Notes under the pieces: generated by a model
Told to the model about the DNA's origin: nothing
What the model saw: the letters and a program-made list of their open reading frames with translations, nothing else
The model's database searches: none
Position numbers and translations under genes: made by a program
Shown here: positions 41,985-46,481 of the stretch, in pieces
How positions within the stretch are numbered: the first letter of the stretch is position 1
Layout of the letters: each line of letters begins with the position of its first letter
Assembly: GCA_964474765.1 (NCBI GenBank)
Contig: CAYYTW010000001.1
Coordinates: 1 to 46,481, forward strand
Direction: 5' to 3'
Source: an uncultured Candidatus Saccharibacteria bacterium
GTDB taxonomy: Bacteria > Patescibacteriota > Minisyncoccia > Portnoybacterales > GCA-002795985
Length of the DNA: 46,481 nucleotides

Positions 41985-44009
41985 TTGATTAACAAACATA
42001 TGCGAAAAAATATTTACTCCGGCAAATCAAGAAGTTTTGATATTAGAACGAAAAGGTCGAGACATACGGGATTCCGTTTTCATTTTGGCAGTTTGTTTAA
42101 AGGCGGGCTGACAGTTTTGATTTCCGTCTTGATTATTTTCGCTCTTGTTCAAGCCGGCACCATCACGCCGCCAAGCGGATCGCCAAGCGCAAAATTTTAT
42201 ACTCTTTCGGAAATCTACACTCGGCTTACCACTAACGCCACTACCACTGAAGGGGGGCACTCTTTTGCTTTTAGCGATTCTCTGGCTGGCACGGGCCGCA
42301 CTTTAACCGAGATTTATGGCGCTATTCCGACCATTGACGCGACAAAAGTGCTTTCCGGCACAAGTTATCTTGGCATAGCCGGAAGTATGGCCAATAATGG
42401 CGCATTTGCTTTAACTGCCAGTTCGTCTGATCAATCAGTTACGGCTGGCTATTATAGCGGCGGCACTCTGGCTGGGGACGCGGATTTGGTGGCGGTAAAT
42501 ATTTCAAACGGTGTTAATATATTTGGCGTCATCGGCAATCTGATTGCGGGTTATCTTTACGGCGACAGCGACGCTTCAAAAGTATTGACTTCTGCGACAG
42601 GCAATGATGGAGCTAACTCTTATTTAGCTACAAACTTAAACAATAATACAGTTAAAAAAGGTATCAGTTATGGAGTAGGCCCAACCACCGGCGCTTATTC
42701 CGGCTATCCGGGCACTGGATGGTCTGGCACTGCCATAAATCAAGCCGCCTGCGACGCCCAAAACCCGACTTGGTACTGGTTTGAAGACGGCAACGGCGAT
42801 GGCGACACAACTGACCCAGAAGATGGTGTTTGCGTCCGAGCTTCTACTGTTACTTCTCTTTCTTGGAACGGTGCGGAGCAGATTGCCCCGACTCCGATCG
42901 CCGCCCAAGCCGCGACAGCTGGTACAGCAAATTCAATCACTAAAGCCAGCGCCGGCTGGACGGCTAATGCCTATACTGATGCTGTTGTTAAAATTACTTC
43001 GGGTACTGCATCGGGTTGCTGGGGTGTTGTTAAGTCAAACATCACCGACACCATTACTGTCTACGGCTCATGGCTTACTTCCAGCCCTGCTACAAGCAGC
43101 TACGCCTCAAATTGTGGCACGCCTGACGAAACTTCGGTTTTCTCTGTTGAAGATGACGGTTTCGCTATTTACGACAATTCTTGGATCGGCGATTGGACTT
43201 GTGACGGAACGGCTTTTCCAAACGGCGCGCCTTCTTGGGTTTCCTATCCGACTTCGGCCAAGGCCGGTTCCGGCAATATCGCGTTGGCCATAGCAGATTG
43301 CTATGATGGTACAAGAGATTTGCTTCCCACCGAAGCGAGCCGCGCGGTTAAAACTGGCACAGCCACTGCAACTTCAACTACATCCATCACCGACTCTTCT
43401 CTTTCTTTAAATACCAACGCATGGGTTGGGCAAAAAGTGCTTATTACCGGCGGCACTGGTTCGGGCGGTTATGGCCGAATTGAGAGCAATACGGGAACAG
43501 TAATTACGGTGGATAGCTGGACAGGCGGGGATCCAGATGTCGGATCCACATTTGCTATCATCTATCTTATTCCGCACGCAGCTTATAACCCAGCAACAGA
43601 TATTCTTAGCCTTAACGCAGTTGGAAGTGCTGTAACAGCTGATAATGACCCTCTAAACGGCAACCTCGGGCCACTGACACAAGAAGTTTTAAAAAATTGG
43701 AAGGGCACAAAGTTGCCTACAGCCAGTGATTTTTTCGGTTTTTGCGGCACCGAGGGAGACGGCACCCCCAGTTTAGCTTATCGCACTTCCGGCAACGCTT
43801 ATACCACTGACAAAACTTACGGCGATTATGGCGGACAAGTAGGAAGATCAGACGAATTTTTGGATTTAGCTAACAGCGGAAACTGGGAATGGCTTTCAGA
43901 GCAGCACCACTACTACAGTGCGCGGATAGCCGGCAATTACGCCTGCTCGTACTTCCATGGTAGTAGTGTCTACGGTGGCTACAGATTCCGTGCCGTCTTC
44001 CGCCCGTAG
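41985..44009 (+). CDS. DGR target (variable) protein: N-terminal membrane anchor, Thr/Gly/Ser-rich ectodomain, C-terminal C-type-lectin/FGE-like VR domain
   Basis: TM helix GLTVLISVLIIFALVQAG. The C-terminus GNWEWLSEQ...YRFRAVFRP matches the WEW...(G/Y)FR pattern of CLec-fold DGR variable regions. The last 118 nt match the TR. An alternative ATG start lies at 41999. Confidence 0.85.
   Translation: MINKHMRKNIYSGKSRSFDIRTKRSRHTGFRFHFGSLFKGGLTVLISVLIIFALVQAGTITPPSGSPSAKFYTLSEIYTRLTTNATTTEGGHSFAFSDSLAGTGRTLTEIYGAIPTIDATKVLSGTSYLGIAGSMANNGAFALTASSSDQSVTAGYYSGGTLAGDADLVAVNISNGVNIFGVIGNLIAGYLYGDSDASKVLTSATGNDGANSYLATNLNNNTVKKGISYGVGPTTGAYSGYPGTGWSGTAINQAACDAQNPTWYWFEDGNGDGDTTDPEDGVCVRASTVTSLSWNGAEQIAPTPIAAQAATAGTANSITKASAGWTANAYTDAVVKITSGTASGCWGVVKSNITDTITVYGSWLTSSPATSSYASNCGTPDETSVFSVEDDGFAIYDNSWIGDWTCDGTAFPNGAPSWVSYPTSAKAGSGNIALAIADCYDGTRDLLPTEASRAVKTGTATATSTTSITDSSLSLNTNAWVGQKVLITGGTGSGGYGRIESNTGTVITVDSWTGGDPDVGSTFAIIYLIPHAAYNPATDILSLNAVGSAVTADNDPLNGNLGPLTQEVLKNWKGTKLPTASDFFGFCGTEGDGTPSLAYRTSGNAYTTDKTYGDYGGQVGRSDEFLDLANSGNWEWLSEQHHYYSARIAGNYACSYFHGSSVYGGYRFRAVFRP
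43888..44005 (+). repeat. DGR variable repeat (VR)
   Basis: 118 nt aligned without gaps to 45030-45147. There are 15 mismatches, all where the TR has adenine. Confidence 0.9.
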
Positions 44010-44082
44010 TGATTTCCCATCTTGATAATTTGGTAATTTGATGATTTCGCTGATTTTGAAAAAAAGATTACACTGATAATAT

Positions 44083-44460
44083 ATGGCTTATTTATATCAG
44101 GATTTAACTTACAAACTGCGAGGAATATTTTTTGAGGTATATAACAAATTAGGACCGGGGTTGCCAGAGAAAGTTTATCAGAAATCTGTGATTTATGAAC
44201 TGCAAAAAGATAATATTTCCTACGAGACCGAAAAGAACATTAATATCAAATATAAGGATATAAATGTCGGAAAACAAAGGTTGGATTTGGTTGTTGATGG
44301 GAAAATAATCATTGAGGTTAAAGCCACTGATAATATGCATTCGCTTTTTGAAAAACAAACCATTGCTTATCTTAAAGCGTCAGATTACAAGCTGGCTTTA
44401 TTGGTGAATTTTGGCGGGAGTAAACTGGTTATAAAACGATATATTAATATGGATCAGTGA
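44083..44460 (+). CDS. GxxExxY protein (PD-(D/E)XK nuclease-fold family)
   Basis: GLPEKVY is GxxExxY. LDLVVDGKIIIEVKA is a D...ExK-like motif. 125 aa. Confidence 0.82.
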   Translation: MAYLYQDLTYKLRGIFFEVYNKLGPGLPEKVYQKSVIYELQKDNISYETEKNINIKYKDINVGKQRLDLVVDGKIIIEVKATDNMHSLFEKQTIAYLKASDYKLALLVNFGGSKLVIKRYINMDQ

Positions 44461-44496
44461 TATCAGTTTTTATTTATCAGTGTTATCGGTTTTTCT

Positions 44497-44853
44497 ATGT
44501 CTCGCTACGAACACATAAGAATATTTCAATGCGCCTATATGTTGACCATTGAAATATACAAAACGACAGCCAATTTCAACCGGGAATTCAAATACACTCT
44601 TGGAGAAAAGTTAAAAAACGCGGCACACGAAATTCTGGACGCGATAATGAGAACAAACTCAATGCCAGACAGAGAGAAACAAAAATGCTTTCCAGAAATT
44701 GATTTTAAGAAAGAGAATTTGCGCGTGTATTTAAGAATCGCCGCTGATTTAAAATTAATCAGCCCTGGCCGGCTTGGAGTTCTCAATGAAAGAATTGAAG
44801 AGCTTGGCCGACAACTGGGCGGTTGGCAAAAATGGACGGCTAAAAGCAGGTAG
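44497..44853 (+). CDS. avd: four-helix-bundle protein, Avd-like DGR accessory factor
   Basis: 118-aa helical basic protein with a C-terminal ELGRQLGGWQKW resembling the Avd/23S-IVS protein family. It sits between the target gene and the TR, as in canonical DGRs. Confidence 0.75.
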   Translation: MSRYEHIRIFQCAYMLTIEIYKTTANFNREFKYTLGEKLKNAAHEILDAIMRTNSMPDREKQKCFPEIDFKKENLRVYLRIAADLKLISPGRLGVLNERIEELGRQLGGWQKWTAKSR

Positions 44854-45029
44854 TATTTTTGGCCGCCTATTCTTGCCAGAGTTTCCGCTTGCCATGGGCG
44901 GCGGGAAGCGCGCAAGAGAAATGATGGGAATCACAGTCCCGTTCCCTAGGAAAATTTTCTAGGATATTTGACAAAGGCCATACCGAGCTTCGGCAAGGAT
45001 TGGCCGGGAATAATGAATAGTAACGGGAC

Positions 45030-45147
45030 AATGGCTTTCAGAGCAGCACAACAACAACAATGCGCGGATAGCCGGCAATAACGCCTGCTCGAACTTCAAT
45101 AATAATAATGTCAACAATGGCAACAGATTCCGTGCCGTCTTCCGCCC
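45030..45147 (+). repeat. DGR template repeat (TR)
   Basis: Non-coding copy of the VR, rich in AAC/AAT (14 AAY triplets in the VR frame), 103/118 identical to the VR. Confidence 0.9.
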
Positions 45148-45161
45148 TAATGATTCCCGAA

Positions 45162-45200
45162 CTTGAGCCCTTAGCTCTTTATTGGGGCTAAGGGCTCAAG
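45162..45200. other. 14-bp perfect-stem hairpin between the TR 3-prime end and the RT stop codon
   Basis: cttgagcccttagc (45162-45175) pairs with gctaagggctcaag (45187-45200), with an 11-nt loop. No flanking T-run on either strand. Confidence 0.8.
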
Positions 45201-45201
45201 C

Positions 45202-46467
45202 TTAATGAGGCTCTTTCCAAATAAAATAATCGTAATTTCGATTGACCGGCTCAAGATAAATTTTCAGAATCCCGAAGTGCTTTTCATAAAGCGTTTTTCG
45301 CAGATTGTAGCAGTTGGCGTGCTTGAAAAATCCATAAACGGAATTGATTGATGAAAAAATGTGGCGGAAATCATCTGTAAATTTCCTGTTGTCAAAAACT
45401 ATAAATGGATCATTGAAAATTATGTCGCAAGCGCGAGATGTGTCGTTTGGATCAAGCGCTTTCAGAACTTTTTGATTGAAATGCCATAAATTGCTTTTAA
45501 GCTTTTTGACGGTTCGCCGTCTGATAAGCGTATAATCCGGCTTGACTATATATCCGCAAAAATTAATGCCGTTTGTTGCCGGCTGGAGAATCTGCTTTTT
45601 GGGGTGAAGTTTAAGTCGCAGATCGGTTTCCACGAAAGTTTTGATGTCATCGCGCCACTTAAGCAGTTGTCCTTTTGAAGAATTAAGCAACAACAGATCA
45701 TCCATATAGCGGAAATAATATCGGCATTTTAGCGAGTGTTTGATGAATTGATCGAGTTCGTTCAGATAGACATTGGCGAAAAATTGGCTGGTCAAATTGC
45801 CGATGGGCAAGCCGCAATTAACTTTGCCAAAAAGAGATTTATGCGGCGGCACGGATTGTAAAAGTTTCAGGTCGCCTCTCGGGATGTAATTCGTGGTCGG
45901 ATCGTGAGAAATAATTTTTTCGGCCAGCCATAAGATTTCCGGGTTCTTGGCACGCTTTTTAATAAAAGAAAATAGAACGCCCTTGTCTATACTGACGAAA
46001 AAACTTTGAATGTCGGCTTGGAGAAAAAACAAATCCGGGGCGATAATTTTTTTGAGGTAATGGATAGCTTTATGGGCTCCTTTAGTTTGGCGGCAGGCGT
46101 AAGAGTGGAAAACAAACATTTTTTCCCAGACGGGTTCAAGATAGCTAACAAGCAAATGGTGGACAACGCGATCCCGAAAATCAGCGGCCCAGACCTCGCG
46201 CAGTTTCGGGTCAGTGATGGCAAAACAAATTGAGGGGCCGAGCTGGTAATTATGACTTTTTAATTCTTCTTTCAGTTTCAAAAGTTCCGATTCAAAATTC
46301 ATTTCAAATTTGGCCACGTGATAAGTTTTGCGTTTATGTTTTCGGCAATCAAGGTAGGCCTTATAAAGATTTTTGAAATTAAAGAGGTCCGTTCCAAGTT
46401 TTTTGACATTTTTTTCACAGGGTTGCGGTGCATAATGCCAGATACATTCTGGACTCCTTGAGACCAT
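45202..46467 (-). CDS. DGR-type reverse transcriptase
   Basis: RT motifs include PIGNLTSQFFANVYL (the I/LGxxxSQ motif characteristic of DGR RTs) and YFRYMDDLLLL (YMDD catalytic box). The N-terminus LYKAYLDCRKHKRKT...FRDRVVHH is typical. No maturase or endonuclease domains. Confidence 0.92.
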   Translation of the reverse strand: MVSRSPECIWHYAPQPCEKNVKKLGTDLFNFKNLYKAYLDCRKHKRKTYHVAKFEMNFESELLKLKEELKSHNYQLGPSICFAITDPKLREVWAADFRDRVVHHLLVSYLEPVWEKMFVFHSYACRQTKGAHKAIHYLKKIIAPDLFFLQADIQSFFVSIDKGVLFSFIKKRAKNPEILWLAEKIISHDPTTNYIPRGDLKLLQSVPPHKSLFGKVNCGLPIGNLTSQFFANVYLNELDQFIKHSLKCRYYFRYMDDLLLLNSSKGQLLKWRDDIKTFVETDLRLKLHPKKQILQPATNGINFCGYIVKPDYTLIRRRTVKKLKSNLWHFNQKVLKALDPNDTSRACDIIFNDPFIVFDNRKFTDDFRHIFSSINSVYGFFKHANCYNLRKTLYEKHFGILKIYLEPVNRNYDYFIWKEPH

Positions 46468-46481
46468 AATCTCATGGCGTT

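Follow-up and report, generated by a model that had tools for sequence, protein, structure and literature searches.

The only mechanistic model of reverse transcription in diversity-generating retroelements (DGRs) comes from one phage, in which a spacer 3′ of the template repeat (TR) primes cDNA synthesis. Many DGRs, abundant ones of the CPR among them, have no room for a 3′ spacer. In the locus described here, part of a 46,481-nt stretch of DNA analysed as a whole (the window), the reverse transcriptase (RT) gene converges on the TR from the opposite strand, and only 54 nt separate the TR end (45147) from the first base of the RT stop codon (45202). Where, then, does the template RNA carry the elements that the phage RNA holds in its 3′ spacer, and how is such an inverted RT tolerated?

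A cassette with a convergent RT gene

The repeat pair consists of a variable repeat (VR, 43888-44005, + strand), a 118-nt direct repeat of the TR with 87% identity, and the TR itself (45030-45150, + strand), where strict TR/VR homology covers 45030-45147 and the putative first templated base is A45150. At each of the 15 mismatches between VR 43888-44005 and TR 45030-45147, the TR has A on the + strand. The VR ends 4 nt ahead of the stop codon in the ORF of the target gene (41985-44009, + strand), which encodes 674 aa without a Pfam match and carries the VR at its 3′ end. VR and TR have in common a GC-rich CGCCC and a sequence resembling the T strand described below; after the VR this segment is IMH-like, with the T-like sequence TGATTTCCC directly 3′ of the VR.

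Downstream of the target lies avd, the accessory variability determinant (44497-44853, + strand; Pfam bAvd PF22296, E 1.4e-17), and the RT gene occupies 45202-46467 on the − strand (421 aa; RVT_1, E 1e-14). The RT ORF is intact, and its motifs IGNLTSQ and YMDD are both invariant among relatives. RT homologues number in the thousands, with the nearest ones in Patescibacteria, and related RTs adjoin TR/VR pairs. Having an A-only TR/VR pair, a DGR-type RT, an avd gene and a VR at the 3′ end of its target, the element is a chromosomal DGR of a Patescibacteria (CPR) bacterium. Mutagenic retrohoming, by which adenine-mutagenised cDNA would replace the VR, is suggested here by its A-only footprint.

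Between target and avd stands a PDDEXK_3 (GxxExxY) gene (44083-44460, + strand; Pfam PF13366, E 5.6e-35), bracketed by a 22-nt inverted repeat (44058-44079 / 44474-44495). It is missing from the corresponding place in four related loci (L161, L162, L164 and L168) and found in a fifth (L165), and is probably an insertion rather than a core part of the DGR.

A sequence-only reading of this DNA had described the RT as convergent with the TR, in an order unlike that of the Bordetella phage (avd-TR-Sp-brt), and had assigned template RNA and RT mRNA to the + and − strands. The cassette layout agrees on gene order and orientation, with the RT ORF on the − strand and TR, target and avd on the +, and the A-only differences on the + strand support the assignment of the two transcripts. 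The same reading proposed comparing gene order in relatives. Where RT identity is at least 70% and a TR/VR pair is detectable, seven of seven relatives are convergent. RT homologues (59-81% identical) led to eight further contigs; a TR was detectable in seven, and in each it lies opposite in strand to the RT. A hidden Markov model of the RNA domain upstream of the TR found 27 loci (26 distinct contigs), every one on the strand opposite the RT. The layout is thus convergent wherever TR or RNA domain can be placed, on about 27 independent contigs.

The inversion could in principle be an assembly artefact, or the DGR decayed and inactive: the window stops 14 nt past the RT start, and the far side of the RT gene lies outside it. 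Against this stand the identical layout on so many independent contigs from different projects, several of which span 50-160 kb and carry the DGR far from their ends, as well as the intact RT ORF with its catalytic motifs and the exclusively A-type differences. The refutation by artefact that the sequence-only reading had allowed for did not materialise, and we regard an artefact or decay as hardly credible. As part of the whole explanation given below, the convergent RT is probably the normal, conserved layout of its lineage.

At the level of gene order the arrangement is not new. Wu et al. 2018 (PMC5758913) catalogued DGRs in which components including TR and RT may occupy different strands, found co-transcription unnecessary, and described CPR DGRs with a dominant architecture of their own. 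The text of that paper never mentions a spacer, intergenic or noncoding sequence, or RNA or secondary structure, and the location of the cis-acting RNA in its cassettes is not stated there.

A structured RNA domain 5′ of the template repeat

The 176-nt gap between avd and TR, together with the last avd codons, holds a structured RNA (44823-45029) 5′ of the TR on the + strand. From 5′ to 3′ it comprises H0, H1, P, a 2-nt linker, S1′, H2, a 12-nt single strand, H3 and S1. In the H0 helix (44823-44879) the last avd codons (44823-44844) pair with the start of the domain (44858-44879), with compensatory changes in 12 of 20 pairs (RNAalifold, 18 sequences). H1 (44882-44907) is an 11-bp stem-loop found by RNAalifold, in which 10 of 11 pairs have changed on both sides; its flanks GCCAGAG (44875-81) and GCGCGC (44908-13) are invariant or nearly so, same-strand DGRs (below) included. 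The P strand GGGAAUCA (44926-44933) pairs with the T strand UGAUUCCC (45151-45158), which lies just past the TR, in an 8-bp helix. Two nucleotides past P, the S1′ strand GUCCCGUU (44936-44943) pairs with the S1 strand AACGGGAC (45022-45029), which abuts the TR start; among convergent relatives seven of the eight S1′:S1 pairs are compensatory and 94% of cells are paired. Directly 3′ of S1′ comes the H2 stem-loop (44945-44963; compensatory changes in 6/6 pairs), then the conserved 12-nt single strand AUAUUUGACAAA (44964-44975), unpaired in the RNAalifold and minimum free energy (MFE) folds and keeping the pattern (R)AUA...GA.AA across both the convergent and the same-strand clade, and then H3 (44976-45005), a long interrupted stem-loop with compensatory changes in 8/9 pairs.

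H1, S1′:S1, H2 and H3 are recovered independently by RNAalifold from 21 sequences. When P:T is added, 89.2% of cells are paired, versus 73.6% in shuffles, and 34 of 42 pairs show changes on both sides; none of 500 shuffles reaches any of these measures, and slid controls drop to 37-57% paired. The MFE fold of 44870-45204 alone contains H1, P:T, S1′:S1, H2, H3 and the hairpin that follows T (z −5.1).

The P:T duplex is notable for switching as a unit. In 20 of 21 relatives the sequence that complements P best is located 2-6 nt past the TR-terminal CGYCC, and the convergent clade has four P/T types (GGGAAUCA/UGAUUCCC, GGGAAUUAC/GUAAUUCCC, GGGAAUUU/AAGUUCCC and GAGACGAC/GUCGUCUC), P and T changing together; same-strand DGRs add nine further types. 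In the MAFFT register P:T is 86% paired in the convergent clade and 73% in same-strand DGRs, a lower score caused by subgroups that are shifted by one column. Another partner for P, the TR-internal GAUUCC, pairs less well although it is the first choice of RNAalifold. We rejected it: 2-4 sequences, the four with a differing P among them, break two of its pairs, and just one pair has a change on both sides.

A junction finder that ignores sequence, requiring a strand that pairs with the TR 3′ end and then within 0-4 nt a strand that pairs upstream of the TR, gave the window a z of only 2.4 and missed the known junction of phage BPP-1, because the helices there hold wobble and non-standard pairs. 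Automated over all loci it chose spurious partners in about a third, and alignments were used instead.

The domain is not confined to convergent elements. With iterated nhmmer profiles, one per clade since a single profile bridged the two poorly, a homologous 5′ domain was found in 19 same-strand DGRs (TR then RT) of other phyla (L014-L070; Desulfobacterota, Nitrospirota, Omnitrophota, Thiobacillus and others). In the 13 of these 19 with a placeable TR, it ends 5-24 nt ahead of the TR. They share with the window element the invariant motifs GCC.GA.U, AG.G.GC, AUA, UAC, GAU and AAGUGG and both long-range duplexes, P:T and S1′:S1, the latter with compensatory changes in 8/8 pairs and 97% of cells paired. 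They differ in having the RT directly after T, on one strand and without the terminal hairpin, and their RTs are only 39-52% identical to that of the window. In one convergent relative (L167) the domain is 5′ of the TR although avd is downstream. The domain thus belongs to the TR, and not to avd or the RT. Since the same-strand DGRs carry it 5′ of the TR as well, the orientation of the RT is irrelevant to the template RNA.

No Rfam family matches the 5′ domain in scans of the window and 13 related loci. The covariance model of the phage RNA (RF03022, Phage_DGR), against which BPP-1 scores 104.7 bits, has no match at E <= 5 in 43700-46481 and none in the 13 related loci. The window element nevertheless shares with the Bordetella phage BPP-1 DGR a target with 3′ VR, avd, an A-specific TR and RT. 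The phage RNA, known in Rfam by RF03022 and also as the RT-10 motif, consists of the avd 3′ end, the TR and a 140-nt spacer. In both RNAs the TR 3′ end is duplexed with a distal strand, and a second duplex 2 nt away pairs just upstream of the TR; both run stem-loop, P, S1′, stem-loop, roughly 12 unpaired nt and a long stem-loop. In the arrangement and spacing of its elements the domain agrees with the phage spacer, as published (bioRxiv 10.1101/2023.10.23.563531) and as read from BPP-1 itself. The window element departs from BPP-1 in placing its spacer-like domain 5′ of the TR and its RT gene on the other strand, with only 8 nt plus an optional hairpin 3′ of the TR.

The correspondence suggests roles for the individual parts. 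H1 is a candidate counterpart of the phage Avd-binding stem-loop; A44933, the last base of P, would be the priming nucleotide; by position, the 12-nt single strand may correspond to the phage ‘thumb ring’ and H3 to the RT-binding stem-loop. T would match the template strand of the phage template:primer duplex, and S1 would take the place of the avd strand in the ‘cPRT stop’ duplex, a duplex that in the phage could not be rescued by compensatory mutation. Given the matching duplex geometry and element order, this RNA resembles the phage one circularly permuted. The likeness to the phage spacer may reflect homology or convergence, neither sequence nor covariance model showing any detectable similarity.

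Alternatively, the 5′ domain might be an element of processing, stability or regulation, and the primer of the cDNA might be, for example, nicked target DNA or a 3′ end left by RNA cleavage. Priming in this clade is assigned by analogy, and for the phage DGR itself alternative priming models have been proposed (PMC5703328). The sequence after the VR, moreover, is complementary to P, in L005 better so than T. We had considered that the VR flank might differ from T so as to break pairing with P and discriminate TR from VR; no such difference exists, and the idea was rejected. Since the post-VR sequence complements P, the P duplex may have a second or a different role. Two long-range duplexes, however, bracket the TR exactly, 2 nt apart on their 5′ strand, like those of the phage active complex; the elements are colinear with the phage spacer; and the domain stays with the TR wherever avd and RT are. 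A function unrelated to the spacer is therefore unlikely in our view.

The 3′ side of the template repeat

Downstream of T, and before the RT stop codon, is a hairpin (45162-45200) with a 5-nt loop, whose perfect 14-bp arms extend to 17 bp; the sequence-only reading had pointed to it, and it is real. Its MFE is −31.4 kcal/mol on the + strand (z −4.8) and −29.9 kcal/mol on the − strand (z −5.5). At its place L086, L089, L088, L164, L166 and L002 have compensatory changes or unrelated hairpins, those of the last four being unrelated and GC-rich, some with U-runs behind them. A U-run follows the hairpin in some relatives (L011, L164), whereas in the window no T-run or U-tract follows it on either strand, and a scan with a terminator consensus made no call. 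A promoter and terminator scan yielded fewer sites than in shuffles, none of them at the hairpin or where the 5′ domain begins. The hairpin may serve as a bidirectional terminator or insulator; because it lacks a U-tract and is placed relative to T like the Avd-binding stem-loop of the phage, its role as a terminator is uncertain.

That placement raises the possibility that the hairpin is itself the key 3′ cis element and the counterpart of the Avd stem-loop, in which case the break of the permutation would fall between this stem-loop and P, and H1 would be an extra. It starts 3 nt past T, the relative place of the phage stem-loop Sp3-33; Handa et al. predict stem-loops just 3′ of the TR in 207 of 278 DGRs; and among close relatives the stem is kept by compensatory changes. 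Yet the hairpin is absent in L090, L162, L165 and L005, loci whose RT abuts or overlaps the end of the TR, tiny in L094/L095, and replaced by the unrelated hairpins of the four loci just named; same-strand relatives, with the RT directly after T, have no such stem-loop. H1, by comparison, is present in all, with its invariant flanking motifs. We therefore consider it quite improbable that the hairpin rather than H1 fills the Avd-binding role.

A phage-like 3′ spacer could also extend past the hairpin, antisense to the 3′ end of the RT gene, so that template RNA and RT mRNA would be coupled. The short distance between TR and RT speaks for this, as do relatives whose RT ORF abuts or overlaps the TR 3′ end, where a short overlap of antisense transcripts is likely. 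So does synonymous diversity, which over the final 65 codons of the RT (0.40-0.42) is a little under the average for the gene (0.44-0.51). But the N-terminal codons share the low value (0.40), so there is no constraint specific to the RT 3′ end, and synonymous suppression in the last RT codons is neither clear nor specific. The RT-antisense segment 45201-45340, folded as + strand RNA, does no better than shuffles (z +0.86). Inserts of 0.3-1.8 kb separate T from the RT in L084/L085 (a 0.3-kb GIY-YIG insert), L093 (1.2 kb of repeats) and L167 (avd and another gene), and TR/VR differences there stay A-only. All phage-like elements, finally, are already found 5′ of the TR. An antisense spacer is accordingly very improbable: nothing is needed downstream of T and the optional hairpin.

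These results divide the two options that the sequence-only reading had offered for the 3′ side. A very short spacer ending at the hairpin was nearly right for that side, which comes down to the 8-nt T and an optional hairpin, but the equivalent of the spacer appears to sit 5′ of the TR. Sense/antisense coupling finds no support in an unstructured 45201-45340, in codons under no clear synonymous constraint, or in loci that tolerate inserts of this size.

A proposed self-contained template RNA

We favour, at a probability of about 70%, the explanation that the convergent RT is tolerated because a self-contained + strand module serves as template RNA and carries its spacer elements in cis, 5′ of the TR. 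This RNA would be about 380 nt long (about 44823-45200). With S1′:S1 formed just upstream of the TR and P:T just downstream, the TR would form a loop held by these two neighbouring duplexes. Avd and the RT made from the − strand mRNA would bind the template RNA in trans, and the 2′-OH of A44933 would prime cDNA at A45150. Synthesis would then cross the TR, with adenine mutagenesis, and stop at the S1:S1′ duplex, while the hairpin 45162-45200 would end or insulate both convergent transcripts.

In the msr-msd RNA of retrons, the priming nucleotide is 5′ of the template, beside a duplex of template-flanking sequences. The likeness to the present RNA is limited to this proposed priming topology. 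The element is not a retron: it has a DGR-type RT with Avd, a TR/VR pair and adenine mutagenesis, and neither msr/msd nor a retron effector. A precedent for a separate TR RNA is the Trichodesmium DGR, in which a promoter distinct from that of the RT mRNA drives an independent, abundant TR transcript of 265 nt (PMC4143802); the TR there is downstream of the RT, and that work does not propose a structured 5′ domain. The permuted RNA, without a match in Rfam, appears to be undescribed.

In a wider reading, to which we give somewhat less than even odds, DGR template RNAs come in two circularly permuted topologies, and a large clade has its spacer and primer 5′ of the template, as in retrons. With the spacer in that position the TR RNA would be autonomous, leaving the RT gene free to invert or move. 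Because the VR flank keeps a complement of P, an RNA joined covalently to the cDNA might, furthermore, guide homing.

If the 5′ domain acts as proposed, it would extend the phage mechanism to DGRs that cannot accommodate a 3′ spacer, and would account for the tolerance of layouts in which, for example, the RT is inverted or displaced. Together with RT and Avd, the compact RNA (about 380 nt) makes a defined set for reconstitution, for which the model names the priming nucleotide and compensatory mutations, and could aid the building of DGR-based mutagenesis tools whose RNA and protein components are separable. As a conserved motif outside Rfam, the domain also allows the TR and its strand to be recognised on contigs that do not reach the VR. 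The clade with a 5′ spacer, as the wider reading would draw it, takes in the convergent-RT elements of the CPR and many same-strand elements of Desulfobacterota, Nitrospirota, Omnitrophota and Proteobacteria.

The element and its convergent layout

The target gene (41985–44009, +) carries in its 3′ end the VR (43888–44005), a direct repeat of the TR (45030–45147) over 118 nt at 87% identity. At all 15 mismatches the TR copy has adenine on the + strand. The template RNA must accordingly be of + sense, opposite to the RT mRNA, as the sequence-only reading had stated. Also on the + strand are a PDDEXK_3/GxxExxY gene (44083–44460) and avd (44497–44853; bAvd). The RT ORF (45202–46467, −; RVT_1, motifs IGNLTSQ and YMDD) is indeed convergent with the TR, its stop codon 54 nt from the TR end. 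The other genes of the window are housekeeping genes (aminoacyl-tRNA synthetases, topoisomerase I, RelA/SpoT, IMPDH), and the DGR is therefore chromosomal. The best genome match for the RT is a Candidatus Doudnabacteria MAG, at 88% RT identity.

Layouts were surveyed in 160 loci from genome and metagenome collections, chosen for RT similarity, with TR/VR pairs called by adenine bias. The TR was immediately upstream of the RT on the same strand in 53 loci and downstream on the same strand in 34 (mostly human-gut contigs); 18 loci were convergent and one was divergent. All seven relatives with at least 70% RT identity and a detectable TR/VR pair were convergent. Eight extra contigs (L161–L168; lengths to 161 kb) were fetched by exact RT protein, with 59–81% RT identity in the alignment. 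The TR was detectable in seven, every time on the strand opposite the RT, and avd was also opposite in seven of the eight. The convergent layout is a lineage trait and no artefact. Wu et al. 2018 (PMC5758913) record that TR and RT can lie on different strands, so the arrangement was already known at catalogue level; by itself it is known, and ordinary in this lineage.

A third layout, with a same-strand TR 13–85 nt downstream of the RT, occurs in ∼30 distant RT relatives (33–37% identity) among the human gut metagenome contigs L115–L160. In at least five of L161–L168 the gene next to the RT 5′ end is an opposite-strand ORF of 440–570 aa with Pur_ac_phosph_N, fn3 or CarboxypepD_reg matches; these ORFs showed no second VR, and the window stops short of that position. 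A 22-nt inverted repeat, 86% complementary (44058–44079 / 44474–44495), brackets the PDDEXK_3/GxxExxY gene, which is missing from the target–avd gap in several relatives and has a Y1 transposase-like ORF in its place in L166; 44058–44495 resembles a small mobile insertion that separates target gene and avd.

A structured RNA domain ahead of the template

With relatives aligned from RT 3′ end to avd 3′ end, the 176-nt avd–TR gap proved strongly conserved down to 46% RT identity. RNAalifold on an alignment of 21 sequences (A2) returned four helices independently, with many compensatory changes. In window coordinates, helix H0 (44823–44844 with 44858–44879) includes the last avd codons, and 12 of its 20 pairs are compensatory. 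There follow a conserved GCCAGAG (44875–44881), stem-loop H1 (44882–44907), a conserved GCGCGC (44908–44913), a 12-nt linker (44914–44925), strand P (44926–44933, GGGAAUCA), the dinucleotide CA (44934–44935), strand S1′ (44936–44943, GUCCCGUU), stem-loop H2 (44945–44963), a single strand (44964–44975, AUAUUUGACAAA), the long stem-loop H3 (44976–45005), 16 nt of single strand (45006–45021) and strand S1 (45022–45029, AACGGGAC), with the TR from 45030 onward. S1′ pairs with S1, and P with strand T (45151–45158, UGAUUCCC).

On A2 the structure has 89.2% of cells paired, against 73.6% for column shuffles, and 34 of 42 pairs show changes on both sides; none of 500 shuffles attained any of the measures, and sliding the 3′ partners by 1–3 columns dropped pairing to 37–57%. 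S1′:S1 is 94% paired (compensatory pairs, 7 of 8). P:T is 86% paired in the MAFFT register, in which four loci with a different P (L005, L010, L011 and L101) stand one column out; read directly, their variant P, GAGACGAC, is complementary to GUCGUCUC. The best complement of P within the TR and its flank falls 2–6 nt past the TR-ending CGYCC in 20 of the 21 sequences. A single-sequence MFE fold of 44870–45204 recovered H1, P:T, S1′:S1, H2, H3 and the hairpin beyond T (z −5.1).

A second GAUUCC inside the TR (45125–45132), in conserved RFR codons, is also able to pair with P, and RNAalifold chose it first; this may reflect either an alternative conformer or a coincidence of the coding sequence. 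The sequence after the VR (44006–44020 in the window; the VR flanks in the related loci) keeps the P complement, and in L005 it pairs with P over 9 bp versus 6 bp for the TR's own T strand, so P might also contact the target site during homing.

A profile of the domain (nhmmer) matched 27 loci, in all of them on the strand opposite the RT. The order in L167 is target, domain, TR, avd, another gene and convergent RT; the domain thus travels with the TR, not with avd. The domain can also be aligned, invariant motifs included, in same-strand DGRs of Desulfobacterota, Thiobacillus, Nitrospinota and Omnitrophota. A profile seeded on same-strand DGRs found it in 19 same-strand loci, ending 5–24 nt before the TR in the 13 with a called TR. 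The RT there starts within a few nucleotides of T, which leaves no room for a 3′ spacer either. In a 17-sequence alignment (A4) S1′:S1 is 97% paired with all eight pairs compensatory, and P:T is represented by nine distinct complementary sequence pairs. This 5′ domain, the probable spacer, is shared across a large DGR clade, and in the CPR lineage the RT gene is simply inverted beside an autonomous RNA module; with the cis elements most likely ahead of the template, RT orientation would not matter.

Comparison with the phage DGR RNA

The cryo-EM study of the Bordetella phage (BPP-1) RNP (bioRxiv 10.1101/2023.10.23.563531) gives the order of the spacer elements, an Avd-binding stem-loop (Sp3–33) first. 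The primer strand Sp47–56, which ends in the priming nucleotide A56, pairs with TR117–129; two unpaired nucleotides later, Sp59–70 pairs with avd369–379, directly ahead of the TR, as the ‘cPRT stop’. Next come a short stem-loop with adenosines behind it, the single-stranded ‘thumb ring’ of 13 nt and a long RT-binding stem-loop. We also read these segments from the BPP-1 sequence itself. The window's H1, linker, P, 2 nt, S1′, H2, AUA plus 12-nt single strand and H3 come in the same order with similar sizes, but here the domain runs at its 3′ end into S1 and the TR, whereas the BPP-1 spacer comes after the TR. On this evidence the window RNA resembles the phage RNA in circularly permuted form. 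Carried over from the phage, the priming role would fall to A44933, which pairs with U45151, and A45150 would be templated first; G stands at that position in the VR, consistent with A45150 being copied.

The Rfam family Phage_DGR (RF03022) scores 104.7 bits against BPP-1 and has no match in the window, and an Rfam scan of 13 related loci placed no family over the 5′ domain; the likeness is accordingly one of function and architecture, short of family membership. Most likely the element operates as the phage DGR does, its RNA permuted so that the cis elements lie ahead of the template. The contig of the Doudnabacteria relative (L001) has a LOOT RNA (RF03000) match that narrowly passes the gathering score (593–689, +; 51.2 bits against 46.4) and is unrelated to the DGR.

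The literature searched, which did not extend to subscription papers, contained no description of a spacer 5′ of the TR, and a prior one is possible. Wu et al. 2018 (PMC5758913) do not mention ‘spacer’, ‘intergenic’, ‘secondary structure’, ‘RNA structure’ or ‘noncoding’. Handa et al. restricted their analysis to 40 nt on the upstream side of the TR and 100 nt on the downstream side; P lies ∼100 nt upstream. Weinberg 2017 connected the RT-10 motif with the phage spacer and offered the speculation that further RT-associated motifs might serve other DGRs. The permuted domain, with its covariation support, is the result of interest here and is directly testable.

The terminal hairpin and possible antisense coupling

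The sequence-only reading had offered a choice between a very short 3′ spacer and coupling of template RNA with antisense RT mRNA. That choice is superseded: the hairpin 3′ of the TR is real, and the cis elements most likely sit 5′. The hairpin (45162–45200; 17 bp, 5-nt loop) lies inside the 54-nt TR–RT gap, with energies of −31.4 kcal/mol on the + strand and −29.9 on the − strand (z about −5). Its stem is kept through compensatory changes in the close relatives L086 and L089, and replaced by unrelated GC-rich hairpins in L088, L164, L166 and L002; U-runs follow the hairpin in L011 and L164. Relatives whose RT ORF touches or runs into the TR end (L090, L162, L165, L005, L003) lack it, and same-strand relatives have none after T. 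Taken together, this is more in keeping with a terminator or insulator of convergent transcription than with a specific protein-binding site. The window's own hairpin has no U-tract, which weakens the terminator reading, and its position relative to T is that of the phage Avd-binding stem-loop; we therefore keep a counterpart of that stem-loop as a rival of low weight, against which stands the hairpin's replacement or loss across relatives.

L003, L005, L090, L094 and L095 have no hairpin, and the 3′ ends of their RT ORF and TR, on opposite strands, meet or overlap; a short sense/antisense transcript overlap is probably unavoidable in them. L081, L082 and L092 have a 16-nt tandem duplication (TCTTAGTAGGGTTCTT) between hairpin and RT stop codon.

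As for coupling, the + strand RNA of 45201–45340, opposite the 3′ end of the RT gene, has no excess structure (z +0.86), and synonymous diversity is as low in the first 40 RT codons (0.40) as in the last ones (0.40–0.42). Some relatives carry natural insertions between T and RT: 0.3 kb with a GIY-YIG ORF in L084/L085, 1.2 kb in L093 and 1.8 kb in L167. In L084, L093 and L167, where a VR was found, the adenine pattern of the TR/VR differences persists (A-only in L093 and L167; 20 of 23 A-type in L084). Obligatory antisense coupling is therefore unlikely.

L084 has two small GIY-YIG ORFs (PF01541; 3075–3341 and 3577–3897, both −) inserted in its DGR, one separating the terminal hairpin from the last RT codons and flanked by inverted repeats CCCCGTGAGATAA / TTATCTCATGGGG, the other in the stretch of the 5′ RNA domain that joins H3 to S1. 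In L103 and L104, a VR-like sequence with the TR adenine positions substituted stands beside the RT hairpin and runs into target-gene coding sequence, which suggests either VR/TR recombination with loss of avd and the 5′ domain or a repeat-spanning assembly collapse.
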